44,513 nt of DNA from an uncultured archaeon (GTDB taxonomy: Archaea > Altiarchaeota > Altiarchaeia > IMC4 > SCGC-AAA252-I15), in assembly GCA_964587725.1 (NCBI GenBank), contig CAZPLO010000010.1:1-44513 (forward strand). The letters run 5' to 3'. How positions within the stretch are numbered: position 1 is the first letter of the stretch; every line of letters begins with the position of its first letter. The notes beneath the pieces are model-generated. The model searched no databases. It worked only from the letters and a program-made list of their open reading frames with translations, and was not told the origin of the DNA. Shown here piece by piece: positions 12,067 to 19,579 of this stretch. The translations under genes were made by a program, and so were the position numbers.

Positions 12067-12158
12067 GCCGCTGTAGCTCAGACTGGGAGAGCACCTGGCT
12101 GAAGAGCCCCAAGCACTCGGAAACCAGGGTGTCGCGAGTTCAAATCTCGTCGGCGGCA
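12067..12158 (+). tRNA. trnF: tRNA-Phe(GAA) with 18-nt canonical 37/38 intron (12105-12122)
   Basis: Acceptor GCCGCTG/CGGCGGC-A; D-arm TAGCTCAGACTGGGAGAGC; anticodon stem CCTGG/CCAGG with GAA at 12101-12103; T-arm GCGAG-TTCAAAT-CTCGT. BHB-like motif: CUGA pairs with intron UCGG, flanked by 3-nt bulges AGA and AAA. Confidence 0.95.
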
Positions 12159-15556: not shown

Positions 15557-16431
15557 CGTTTGGCTTTCCTGTAAGGCATGCCGCGGACCAGCTTCCTCAT
15601 CCTCGCCTCGGAGACGACCTTGTCGCCACCTATCTTGATGTACTGGCCTTTCATCACGGTGCCGACCTCCACACACGGGCACTTGTTTTCCGCCGCGGTC
15701 TCCACCACCGAATCCACGGCTTTCCTGGGCACCGCTATCATGTAAGTCCCCATGTACCTTGTTGGGCTCGCATACGGTATCGACGTTATCTTAATCCCCC
15801 GCTTGCTCTTCACCATCATCTCCGCGAGGTTGCCGAACCATCCGCCCCGGGACGCGTCCTTGACCGCGTGTATTTCAACGTATTTCTTGTAGAGTGCGTA
15901 CATGGTGTTGAACTTCACATTCGCCCTGTACACGCGTTCGCCGACGCTGCCGTCCATGACGTGTCCCAGCATCATAACCCTGTCCCCTATCTTGGCGCCG
16001 CAGTCCGCTATGGGCTCCCGCATGAGTTTTCCGACGACGGTGAACGAGATGCACGGCTTCAAGTCGTTCTCCATCTGGGTGTTGCCTCCGACGACCGGGA
16101 CGCCTACGCCGAGGCTCTGCTTCCGCACGTCCTCCGACACAGCCTTCGCCTCAGCTATACTGTTCACCTGCATGGCGTTGAACGCGTACAACGGTTTACC
16201 CCCCATAGCCACGATGTCGGTGCAGCTGTGCAACAAACCAGTCTTACGCCCAATCTTCAGGGGGTACGGGCCCTCCATGTTTATGACCGTGTCCCCGACG
16301 ATGACGGCGTCGTCGCCCTGGCGTATGCCGTAGCTGAGGCCGTCGACCTGGTCGTCCATCTGCCAGAACACCTTCCTTATGGCGGACGTCTCCAGCATGT
16401 GGTCGATGCTCCTCTGAATGTCCCTCTTCAT
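15553..16431 (-). CDS. AIR synthase (PurM/ThiL-like) related protein
   Basis: GDDAVIV, DIVAMGGKP, VPVVGGNT, AVKDASRGG. Confidence 0.8.
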   Translation of the reverse strand: MKRDIQRSIDHMLETSAIRKVFWQMDDQVDGLSYGIRQGDDAVIVGDTVINMEGPYPLKIGRKTGLLHSCTDIVAMGGKPLYAFNAMQVNSIAEAKAVSEDVRKQSLGVGVPVVGGNTQMENDLKPCISFTVVGKLMREPIADCGAKIGDRVMMLGHVMDGSVGERVYRANVKFNTMYALYKKYVEIHAVKDASRGGWFGNLAEMMVKSKRGIKITSIPYASPTRYMGTYMIAVPRKAVDSVVETAAENKCPCVEVGTVMKGQYIKIGGDKVVSEARMRKLVRGMPYRKAKR

Positions 16432-17879
16432 AGTATTTTCCTCTGGAAACTGAACGTCAACTCCTCAATCCTTGATTTGTCGTCGGACAGTAATACGCCG
16501 TCGGCGCTATTAAACTCTTCAAGGCCCGCAGACACCTTGGATGCGACGTCCTTAAGCCTGGGGTCAGCGTCCTCCAGCCTCTCCCTTACCTCGGCCACAG
16601 TCATCCTGCGTTTTGATGCCATCAGCATGGTGTTGCCTCCGAAGTCTATGGTGAACACGGAAGGATAAACCTGCTGGAGCGTGTAGGCTATGGCGTCGCT
16701 GACGCCGGTGTCGTTGCGGGCGGTAACCACGTTCATCATCACCACTCCGTCTTCAGTCAAATGGTCGTCGACCTCCTGGAAGAACTCCACAGTAGCCAGG
16801 TGCACCGGTATGTCTGCTCCGTGGAAGACGTCTATGTCCACGATATCATATCTGCCTTCCTGCCGGATGAACATTCTAGCGTCCATGTTGTACACTCTAA
16901 GGCGTTCGCCCTCTTCGACGCCGAAGTAATCCTCCGCCACCTCCACTACCTTCGGGTCTATCTCCACCGCGTCGACGTTGACGTCGTGAAAGTGCAGTAG
17001 CTGCTTCACCGCCGTCCCCCCCGCCATCCCCAGGAACAATATGTTTTCTCCACCGTTTATTTCAGGGCCCACAGCGTATGCGTCGTAGTATCTCCCCGTT
17101 AGCACCCCCTCCTTGTTCATGTAGGTTTGTAGGAAAAACACCTCCTGGTTAGTCTTTAGTATCCGGTGTGTGGGGTAGTCGTACACGCTTATGACATTGT
17201 ACGCCGACTCTGTCCGGTAGACGAGGTTGTCGGGCGCAGGTTGCGTAATCAGGAGGCCGGGCACCAGGAACATGAACATCAGCGAGTCCATTTTGTTCCA
17301 CAGGCCCACGGCTGCCACCAGGAACAGGGCTGCGGCGTTGGCGAGCAACGTCGCCCTAGTGCCCATCCAAGGCAGAAGCATGAAGGCGGTGGCGAACGTT
17401 CCGAATATGCTGCCGACGGTGGAGACCGCGTACACTAGCCCCGCCGAACCTCCCACATCCTCCAAGTCCCGGGTGTGGAATTTTATAACCATCGGCGACG
17501 TCATCGACAACAGGGTTAACGGAGCCACGAACAAGAGGACCGTGGCCGCTATGGGCCCCAGTATGAGGCCGCCGTATATTGAGGCCATAACCACCGGCCT
17601 GCCCACCAACGGTATGAATGCCGCGTAGACCGCAGCGTACAGCAGGTTCCTGAACACGTCCCTGACGTCGTTTCTCTCATCAGCCCTCTTGCCGCCGAGG
17701 TAGTATCCCACCGACAAAGCCGCCATTATGACGCCTATCAGCGCTCCCCACACGTACACGCTCCCTCCGAAACCCGGTGCCAGCACCCTAGACGCAGCCA
17801 GCTCCAGGCTCATAATAGAGAACCCTGCGGTGAACGCGGTGAACACCAGGTACTCCTGTTTGCCCAATCTAGCCTTCAT
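16428..17879 (-). CDS. Membrane-fused spermidine synthase-like SAM-dependent protein
   Basis: N-terminal TM block (ELAASRVLAPGFG, YAVSTVGSIFG) and C-terminal LFLGMAGG, VEIDPKVV, DAR, HLATVEF. Confidence 0.85.
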   Translation of the reverse strand: MKARLGKQEYLVFTAFTAGFSIMSLELAASRVLAPGFGGSVYVWGALIGVIMAALSVGYYLGGKRADERNDVRDVFRNLLYAAVYAAFIPLVGRPVVMASIYGGLILGPIAATVLLFVAPLTLLSMTSPMVIKFHTRDLEDVGGSAGLVYAVSTVGSIFGTFATAFMLLPWMGTRATLLANAAALFLVAAVGLWNKMDSLMFMFLVPGLLITQPAPDNLVYRTESAYNVISVYDYPTHRILKTNQEVFFLQTYMNKEGVLTGRYYDAYAVGPEINGGENILFLGMAGGTAVKQLLHFHDVNVDAVEIDPKVVEVAEDYFGVEEGERLRVYNMDARMFIRQEGRYDIVDIDVFHGADIPVHLATVEFFQEVDDHLTEDGVVMMNVVTARNDTGVSDAIAYTLQQVYPSVFTIDFGGNTMLMASKRRMTVAEVRERLEDADPRLKDVASKVSAGLEEFNSADGVLLSDDKSRIEELTFSFQRKIL

Positions 17880-17898
17880 CCCATAAAATCCTTTGTGT

Positions 17899-17958
17899 GG
17901 CGGTCAGGTCGCCCATCAGTCATCACGTGTCAGTGGTTGTTCGCGTCATCACACCGCC
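17899..17958 (-). ncRNA. Box C/D 2'-O-methylation guide sRNA
   Basis: Minus strand GGCGG-U-GUGAUGA(C)-CGCGAACAACCA-CUGA(D')-CAC-GUGAUGA(C')-CUGAUGGGCGAC-CUGA(D)-CCGCC. Perfect boxes, two 12-nt guides, 5-bp terminal stem, TATA-like TAATAAA about 25 nt upstream. Confidence 0.93.
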
Positions 17959-18043
17959 GGTTAATATTAGCGGCGCATTGGTTTATTAGTCCGGTTTTCT
18001 TTTTCGTCAACGTTTTTCTTATGTAAATTAATATAATACCGCC

Positions 18044-19579
18044 ATGGCCGTCCACTGGAGCGAGGAGGTTGTCGACCGCCTTAGGGAACGCGGCGACAAG
18101 CATGTGATTGAGACAGGCACCAGCATATCCGGCATCCCCCACGTCGGCAACGCCAGCGACGTCATACGCGGGGACTGCGTGCGGAAGGCGCTGCTGGAGG
18201 GGGAATGCAAGGCGGAATTGATTTGGGTGGCGGACGACTCGGACCCGTTCCGGAAGGTGCCTGCTGGCATGGAATCCCTCGCCGACTACCTGGGTTACCC
18301 TGTGAGGGACATACCCGACCCCGACGGATGCCACGGCAGCTTCGTGGAACACTTTGCGGAGCCGTTCGTGAAAAACCTGGAGTCGTTCGGGGTGAAGCCG
18401 ACTGTTTACTCGGGCACGGAACTCTACAGGACCGGGCAGCTAACCGCCGAAATTAAAACCGCGTTCGAGAACAGGGACAAGATAAGGGAAATACTCAACC
18501 AATATCGTCGGGAGCCGCTGCCGGAAGACTACATACCCTGGAGTCCAGTGTGCGGGAACTGCGGCCGCATATCCACCACCAACCCCGCGTCCCTGGACGG
18601 TCTGAAGGTGGGGTACGAGTGCGTGACATCCGACGTTTCAGGCAGCGAGGTCGAAGGATGCGGCCACAGCGGGGAGTCGGATGCGTCGAAGGGCTTGGGG
18701 AAGATGCCTTGGAGGGTTGAGTGGGCCGCCCGCTGGAGCCACTTCAAGGTCACCTGCGAGCCCTTCGGCAAGGAGCATGCGGCGCCAGGAGGCAGCTACG
18801 ACACGTCCAGCATCGTAAGCCGGGAGGTGTTCGGGTGGATGCCGCCGGAGCCGGTGATATACGAGTTCTTCACGTTGAACGGGGAGAAGATATCCAGTTC
18901 GCAGGGGAACGTCATAACGCTGTCGGACTGGCTGGGCATCGCGGAACCTGAAGTATTGAAGTATTTCATGTACAAGCGGCTGCAGAAGCAGCGGGACATA
19001 AACCTGAGCATGCTGCCCAACCTGGTCGACGAATACGACGAAGCAGAACGCATCTACTTCCGGAGGCAGGACGGCGACTCGGGCCTGGCAAGGATGTACG
19101 GACTGGCTCAAACCAAGGAACCCCGGTACCTGAATGTCCCATACACGTTGTGCGCGGTTTTGGGCCAGGTTTCTCCGGACGAAGACGTTCGTTATAAGGT
19201 GGAGTCCATGGGCTACGGGGGATTCGACCCTGTCCGGCTTAAGAGGAGGGTTAGGCTGGCCGGGAACTGGGTCCAGACCCACGGCCCCGAGTACCTGCGT
19301 TTCAAGCTGAACTCGGTGGAGGAATCCCGCATAGTATTCTCAGAACTCCCGGAAGCCGAGAGAAACTGCCTGACGGAGTTGGCGGATTCCATGGCTGGAG
19401 TTAACCCCGAGCAGTTTCACAAGACGATATACGAGACCGCCCGCTCCCACGGGCTGAAGCCCCCGAAACTGTTCAAGTCCATCTACCGGATGCTTATTGG
19501 GAAGGACAAGGGCCCCAAGGCCGCAGCATTCATGCTGTCCCTGGGCAAGGCGGATGTGAAATCCCGTTTCACGGCGTAG
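18044..19579 (+). CDS. lysS: Lysine--tRNA ligase, class I
   Basis: GTSISGIPHVGN, DDSDPFRKVP, KMPWRVEWAARW, EPFGKEH, KISSS. Confidence 0.97.
   Translation: MAVHWSEEVVDRLRERGDKHVIETGTSISGIPHVGNASDVIRGDCVRKALLEGECKAELIWVADDSDPFRKVPAGMESLADYLGYPVRDIPDPDGCHGSFVEHFAEPFVKNLESFGVKPTVYSGTELYRTGQLTAEIKTAFENRDKIREILNQYRREPLPEDYIPWSPVCGNCGRISTTNPASLDGLKVGYECVTSDVSGSEVEGCGHSGESDASKGLGKMPWRVEWAARWSHFKVTCEPFGKEHAAPGGSYDTSSIVSREVFGWMPPEPVIYEFFTLNGEKISSSQGNVITLSDWLGIAEPEVLKYFMYKRLQKQRDINLSMLPNLVDEYDEAERIYFRRQDGDSGLARMYGLAQTKEPRYLNVPYTLCAVLGQVSPDEDVRYKVESMGYGGFDPVRLKRRVRLAGNWVQTHGPEYLRFKLNSVEESRIVFSELPEAERNCLTELADSMAGVNPEQFHKTIYETARSHGLKPPKLFKSIYRMLIGKDKGPKAAAFMLSLGKADVKSRFTA

Follow-up and report, generated by a model that had tools for sequence, protein, structure and literature searches.

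A double-guide box C/D sRNA of an Altiarchaeota order predicted to direct ribose methylation at 23S U2552 and probably at 16S C1402

Three routes to the ribose methylation of U2552 in 23S rRNA (Um2552) are known according to the excerpts of PMC12123411 used here, and one of them is a system guided by small RNAs. Stand-alone proteins make the modification in Escherichia coli, by RlmE (FtsJ/RrmJ), and in Thermus thermophilus, by RlmR, which the same excerpts describe as a SPOUT-type enzyme (PMC12123411). The modification Cm1402 in E. coli 16S rRNA is likewise the work of a stand-alone protein, RsmI. In yeast, on the other hand, the counterpart of U2552 is methylated as Um2921 by fibrillarin under the guidance of snR52 (excerpts of PMC12123411), and the counterpart of Cm1402, 18S Cm1639, is guided by a C/D snoRNA as well (excerpts of PMC11542601), so that yeast uses RNA guides at both of the positions that will concern us most. 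Yeast differs from the system described below in that two separate snoRNAs with long guides are employed and that Spb1 backs up Um2921. The snoRNA for Cm1639 is presumably snR70.

Among archaea, the consulted portion of Dennis et al. 2015 (PMC4644070) predicts sRNA-guided U2552 methylation in five of seven species. The D' guide of Methanopyrus kandleri sR17, AAGCGAACAACCG, carries the same antisense to helix 92, GGUUGUUCGC, as the RNA that we describe here and has U2552 as its target, and the helix 92 of M. kandleri is identical to that of our Altiarchaeota genome (PMC4644070). However, the D guide of sR17, AUCCUGCGACCACU, is unrelated and its boxes are less canonical; moreover M. kandleri, a hyperthermophile, has over 100 sRNAs, against only two full C/D sRNAs that a strict scan finds in the Altiarchaeota genome. 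A single sRNA with one guide for each ribosomal subunit has a precedent in Nanoarchaeum equitans sR20, which according to the portion of PMC5389701 consulted acts on 16S (Gm1530) and 23S (Cm1920), sites other than those of the Altiarchaeota sRNA; that portion also reports Cm1402 as measured in N. equitans, with no sRNA for it found there. Our literature search found no paper on Altiarchaeota C/D guide RNAs. What is new here is the lineage, the pairing of these guides on one RNA and the permutation of its gene, while the mechanism and the replacement of RlmE have been published before.

Within the window, by which we mean the whole stretch of 44,513 nucleotides analysed, the minus strand holds a 60-nt element at 17899-17958 that reads GGCGG-U-GUGAUGA(C)-CGCGAACAACCA-CUGA(D')-CAC-GUGAUGA(C')-CUGAUGGGCGAC-CUGA(D)-CCGCC, and whose parts are listed in Table 1. 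It shows the marks by which an archaeal box C/D RNA is recognised, namely an RUGAUGA box C near the 5' end, a CUGA box D near the 3' end and, between them, D' and C' boxes separated by a short spacer, which are kept in all 37 tabulated homologues. Both guides are exactly 12 nt long, where the consulted part of PMC7229835 gives a guide-spacer constraint of about 12 nt for archaeal C/D RNAs, and the terminal stem, which would close the C/D kink-turn, comprises 5 bp. A search of the 44.5-kb window for TGATGA-N12-CTGA-N2-8-TGATGA-N12-CTGA gives a single match, and 100 dinucleotide-preserving shuffles give none. The fold energy is unexceptional (z = -0.9), as is usual among C/D sRNAs. At gathering thresholds Rfam returns no match to the element; with E-value thresholds it returns box-driven matches to archaeal C/D families, the best of them to sR2 (RF01139) at 30.3 bits vs a gathering score of 42, and with all scores below threshold the element belongs to no named Rfam C/D family. 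Judged by its sequence, the element is a genuine and probably functional box C/D sRNA of the archaeal type, which adds a member to a well-known RNA class; the unannotated C/D RNA with consensus boxes, 12-nt guides and terminal stem proposed in the preliminary description is thus confirmed by anatomy, by the shuffles and by conservation.

Table 1. Parts of the sRNA and of its flanks, with positions in the window
Feature	Position	Strand	Remark
Terminal stem, 5' half, GGCGG	17954..17958	minus	base-paired to 17899-17903
Box C, GUGAUGA	17946..17952	minus	TGATGA invariant, first base G or A in 37 tabulated homologues
D' guide, CGCGAACAACCA	17934..17945	minus	antisense to 23S helix 92, N+5 opposite U2552
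Box D', CUGA	17930..17933	minus	
D'-C' spacer, CAC	17927..17929	minus	in homologues variable in sequence, 2-6 nt long
Box C', GUGAUGA	17920..17926	minus	
D guide, CUGAUGGGCGAC	17908..17919	minus	antisense to 16S 1400-1408 (N+5 = C1402) and to 23S 2555-2564 (N+5 = C2558)
Box D, CUGA	17904..17907	minus	
Terminal stem, 3' half, CCGCC	17899..17903	minus	kept in homologues
A/T-rich TATA-like stretch, ACUAAUAAAC	17981..17990	minus	about 25-30 nt upstream of the first base of the RNA; possible archaeal promoter
U-run, AUUUUA	17884..17889	minus	10-15 nt past the 3' stem; possible oligo-U terminator

The sRNA sits between two divergent neighbours. The minus-strand ORF (16428-17879) encodes a membrane protein that contains a spermidine-synthase-like domain, the plus-strand one (18044-19579) a class I lysyl-tRNA synthetase, LysRS (lysS; PF01921, 393 bits). 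The former starts at 17879, after the U-run, and A/T-rich boxes like the one upstream of the sRNA stand at equal distance in two other genomes (G001 and G011). A run search yielded DNA runs, four of them possibly the source, and a single RNA run, with a share of 0.04; none of the RNA runs was of this organism. We considered as evidence of expression an RNA-library contig of 163 nt, which has 47 identical nucleotides (17898-17944), flanks unlike the window and an adapter-like end, and rejected it, attributing it to a relative. Elsewhere in the window, at 12067-12158 on the plus strand, Rfam recognises a tRNA gene (53.7 bits) whose anticodon region carries an insert of 21 nt.

How widely is this RNA kept? 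We sought it by BLAST and by pattern searches in a sample of 61 genomes of the phylum, 49 of them from the order of the window. The arrangement seen in the window, which we call form A, is present in 31 of the 61 and a circularly permuted form B in seven; all 38 sRNA-bearing genomes fall in the window's order (38 of 49), spread over six families, and none carries both forms. Among genomes of 185,579 species the exact form-A pattern gave 30 records, all from this group. In form B the order is box C, GAUGGGCGA guide, D', C', U2552 guide, box D, and the terminal stem is a different one (UGCUU/AAGCA). Our alignment table comprises 37 homologues, one form-A locus having been left out as too near a contig end, and in these the boxes and the guide cores are invariant. 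Counting bases upstream from box D or D', the U2552 guide is invariant from N+2 to N+9 in all 37 and free at N+1 and N+12; at N+10 it has C in 31 and U in six, either of which pairs with G2557, and at N+11 G in 28 and A in nine. The other guide, the D guide in form A, is invariant from N+2 to N+11 in 37 of 37 and shows all four bases at N+1 and at N+12. The form-A stem retains 150 of 150 pair cells (5 pairs in 30 homologues), with compensatory changes such as G-C to A-U at pairs 2 and 4. Searched for by itself, the U2552 guide turns up in 48 of the 61 genomes; 11 of these belong to the 12 genomes from two families outside the order. A reversed control pattern gave 0 matches.

Forms A and B share one locus, LysRS adjoining most form-A loci and four of the seven form-B loci, and two genera (g4 and g6) each contain both forms. 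Near three intact genes, at distances of 80-800 nt, there are half-copies: either one half of the RNA, 5' or 3', or a copy interrupted by some 80 nt (L099 in G011, L100 in G001 and L101 in G008). They are probably relics of the tandem duplication behind the A/B permutation, which is likely to have come about when a tandemly duplicated gene lost its outer halves. In both orders the two guides remain on one RNA, which suggests that their linkage is under selection.

The target of the D' guide can be read in the organism's own 23S gene (G000:C1:98696-101556, minus), where helix 92 reads GGGGUUGUUCGCCCAUUAAAGCGG, close to the sequence that the preliminary description had given for archaea. The guide pairs with this helix from N+2 to N+11, with 10 bp, no G-U and -18.2 kcal/mol, and its N+5 lies opposite position 2526, which is E. 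coli U2552, the A-loop's first nucleotide; among 26 tRNAs, 16S and 23S, helix 92 is its sole match of at least 8 bp. The target GGGGUUGUUCGCCCAUUAAAG is present in 33 of 34 matching 23S rows (32 genomes), the exception being an extra 23S copy in G005, and two further 23S rows differ just beyond this stretch. In the sister family f8, helix 92 reads UGUUCAUCC (in longer quotation GGGUUGUUCAUCCAUCAAAG), and the U2552 guide, GAUGAACAACCA, pairs with the bases that differ there, A2557 and U2558. This covariation is suggestive rather than decisive, since the f8-like guide end (U at N+10, A at N+11) also occurs in genomes of the order that retain G2557 and C2558. The assignment to U2552, already made from the window by itself, is borne out by these pairings and is firm as a prediction; the D' guide very probably directs ribose methylation of U2552 in the A-loop. 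A 12/12 match to the same guide at G000:C1:38297 lies in coding-like sequence without boxes and is taken as chance.

The partners that such an RNA would need, and that the preliminary description had named, are all encoded in the genome (1.56 Mb in 48 contigs, 92% complete): fibrillarin at 262 bits, Nop5 at 225 bits and two L7Ae-family proteins at 95.7 and 64.3 bits. RlmE was found neither in this 92%-complete genome nor in the 61 phylum genomes sampled, which supports the earlier suggestion that RNA guidance takes its place. In the genome the rrmJ model TIGR00438 reaches at most 15.4 bits vs a cut-off of 300, and the best FtsJ match (24.4 bits), considered as a candidate RlmE, was rejected as an RsmB/F NOL1/NOP2 m5C methyltransferase, to whose family PF01189 it scores 181.8 bits. 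Across the 61 genomes the best FtsJ score is 71 bits, from a contig-end fragment in G007, and all others are at most 38 bits. An RlmR-type SPOUT enzyme was not found, the only SpoU protein in the genome being of the TrmJ/YjtD family, nor was RsmI in the same 92%-complete genome, so that none of the stand-alone proteins known to make Um2552 or Cm1402 in E. coli and T. thermophilus was found in it. Because neither RlmE nor an RlmR-type enzyme was found, the sRNA would be the only identifiable route to Um2552 in this lineage. RNA guidance in place of RlmE is right as an idea, but sRNA-guided Um2552 in archaea had been published before (Dennis et al. 2015, PMC4644070).

What does the D guide bind? 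The preliminary description placed both guides on helix 92, and its arithmetic for the D guide is correct: N+2 to N+11 pair with 23S over 10 bp with one G-U, at N+10, and -16.9 kcal/mol, and N+5 falls on position 2532, which is C2558. However, the target is not secured by this pairing, as the guide fits equally well a site that was not considered there, 16S C1402. With the 16S sequence CGCCCGUCA, N+3 to N+11 form 9 bp with one G-U, at N+8, and -17.3 kcal/mol, and N+5 falls on position 1361, corresponding to C1402. At the 16S site N+2 has no partner, while the 23S site fills the entire 10-bp window from N+2 to N+11; the consulted part of PMC7229835 describes duplexes of 9-10 bp as efficient in archaeal C/D RNPs, with 10 nt at most. 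The 16S target CCGCCCGUCA is conserved across the order. Helix 92 and 16S 1399-1408 are both nearly invariant there: the rRNA copies that belong to the order show a single change, A2561G (in G026), and the guide's U pairs with either base. Within the shared paired stretch the two targets differ only at G1405/A2561 and at C1407/U2563, and the U at N+8 and the G at N+10 are the only bases that pair with both.

In our view the best explanation of these data, to which we give a probability of roughly 0.6, is a functional C/D sRNA with its D' guide on U2552, 16S C1402 as the conserved target of its D guide and C2558 as a possible second one; expression, RNP assembly and methylation are what we infer from the sequences. 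The reading in which the D guide acts on C2558 only, as first proposed, we consider unlikely, although several observations speak for it. Its pairing fills the full window, the invariant A at N+2 and U at N+8 suit U2555 and A2561, the guide core recurs in Methanococcus maripaludis sR106, A at N+2 included (PMC4644070), and nearby sites are often targeted by archaeal double guides, as noted in the consulted part of PMC7994747. The two footprints, 2549-2558 and 2555-2564, would overlap by 4 nt and have to be used sequentially, and both strands of the A-loop hairpin would be opened. Against this reading stands family f8. The homologue of our sRNA there resembles form B and has the same stem, and its corresponding guide, G[A/U]AACGGGCGGU, is unable to pair with f8 helix 92 and forms 9 Watson-Crick bp with 16S ACCGCCCGU at C1402. 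Moreover, the G at N+10 is invariant and never A; it is Watson-Crick to C1407 but merely wobbles with U2563, where A would pair better. The A-loop predictions in the consulted portion of Dennis et al. 2015 are U2552 and C2556, not C2558 (PMC4644070). In the rows of the Nm table seen in PMC11542601, Cm1402 is listed beside Um2552 for E. coli, Pyrococcus abyssi, yeast, human and plants, C1402 being ribose-methylated in bacteria, archaea and eukaryotes, whereas C2558 has no counterpart among them. Finally, a D guide devoted to C2558 would leave C1402 with neither guide nor enzyme, as no other C1402 guide with proper boxes was found in the genome. Weighing these points we regard C1402 as probably the conserved target of the D guide, while noting that the invariant A at N+2 and U at N+8 (the former pairing only with U2555, the latter Watson-Crick with A2561 and wobbling with G1405, both 37 of 37) would be left unexplained by a target in 16S only.

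Could the D guide serve some purpose other than methylation, as a chaperone contact in rRNA folding or by binding another RNA such as a tRNA or mRNA? There are two weak 8-bp runs, with tRNA-Gly(GCC) and tRNA-Ser, and many 10-mer matches elsewhere in the genome; but the tRNA runs start at N+4 or N+5 and contain G-U pairs, the 10-mer matches are about as many as chance would give and are not conserved targets, and the invariance of N+2 to N+11 indicates a highly conserved target such as rRNA. We think this quite improbable. That the box pattern is accidental, or a decayed remnant, and is never expressed would agree with the unexceptional fold energy, but it is very hard to reconcile with the failure of the shuffles to reproduce the box and spacer pattern and with conservation in 38 genomes of six families, where boxes and guide cores are selectively invariant and the stem covaries; we give it next to no weight.

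On our preferred reading, with C1402 as the D guide's conserved target, L7Ae, Nop5 and fibrillarin would assemble on the C/D motif and on the C'/D' motif alike. Counting upstream from box D or D', the nucleotide paired to the fifth base of each 12-nt guide would be set for 2'-O-methylation; the D' guide would thereby produce Um2552 in the A-loop of 23S rRNA and the D guide would act on C1402 in the decoding centre (P site) of 16S rRNA, one RNA serving two ribose methylations common to all domains, one per subunit. The U at N+8 and G at N+10 would allow full pairing with 23S 2555-2564 also, so that C2558 may be a second target. In a stricter form of this idea, the wobble-capable U and G tune one guide for two universally conserved sites, 16S C1402 and, on the 3' strand of helix 92, 23S C2558, linked to the U2552 guide, and selection has kept the guides together through repeated in-situ circular permutation. 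We put this forward tentatively, as a possibility well short of an even chance; what speaks for a two-target constraint is that only it explains the A at N+2, the U at N+8 and the G at N+10 jointly.

Similar guides are known from other archaea. M. maripaludis sR106, M. kandleri sR114 and Sulfolobus acidocaldarius sR122 have guides of the form GAUGGGCG(A/G), in which N+8 is U and N+10 is G, as here (PMC4644070). At N+2 sR106 has A, as in our sRNA, while sR114 and sR122 have G; the guides of the latter two are GAUGGGCGG, and in our own reading of the pairing, based on the sequences in PMC4644070, their outer bases fit their own 16S better. All three differ from the Altiarchaeota sRNA in that their partner guides are other than a U2552 guide. 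The supplement of PMC4644070 gives sRNA sequences and read counts without a target table, and its alignment blocks show both regions without labels for sR106, sR114 or sR122.

Several further observations concern related RNAs. In family f9 the 16S sequence (G053-G056) reads ACACUGUCCGUCA, with U at 1400 and 1402, and the U2552 sRNA (L149-L155) has a different D guide, CCUUAUGAGCAC, and a long D'-C' insert. One genome, G014, carries two extra U2552-guide copies (L156, G014:C3:11200-11560), one of them part of an sRNA in which a long insert separates D' from C' and the D guide, GACUUAUGAGUC, resembles the f9 type. The second canonical C/D sRNA of the window's genome (G000:C3 ~87275-87325, minus strand) follows the Nop5 gene a short way downstream. 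With its D' guide it pairs from N+2 to N+12 with the organism's own 23S and points to position 2472, by alignment E. coli C2498, which E. coli methylates with RlmM. In this neighbourhood the 23S rRNA is itself unusual, since the genome's own copy (G000:C1:99071-99091) and those of 38 other phylum genomes read ACUUCGCUGUCGGCUC vs the archaeal consensus ACCUCGAUGUCGGCUC; by alignment, C replaces the near-universal A2503 and U replaces C2499, the stretch UUCGC being present in 41 of 44 matched rows (39 genomes), and the guide of the second sRNA pairs with the variant bases. A relaxed half-mer scan for further sRNAs gave mostly coding-like sequence with non-canonical boxes and was discarded as noise.

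With this sRNA, C/D guide RNAs are documented in Altiarchaeota. A genome with very few such RNAs keeps guides for sites that bacteria methylate by dedicated proteins, namely U2552, probably C1402 and, through the second sRNA, C2498, which speaks for the view that a very small core of ribose methylations cannot be dispensed with, whichever machinery makes them. That the D guide fits two sites calls for caution in target prediction and, at the same time, offers a testable case of one guide that may serve two sites.
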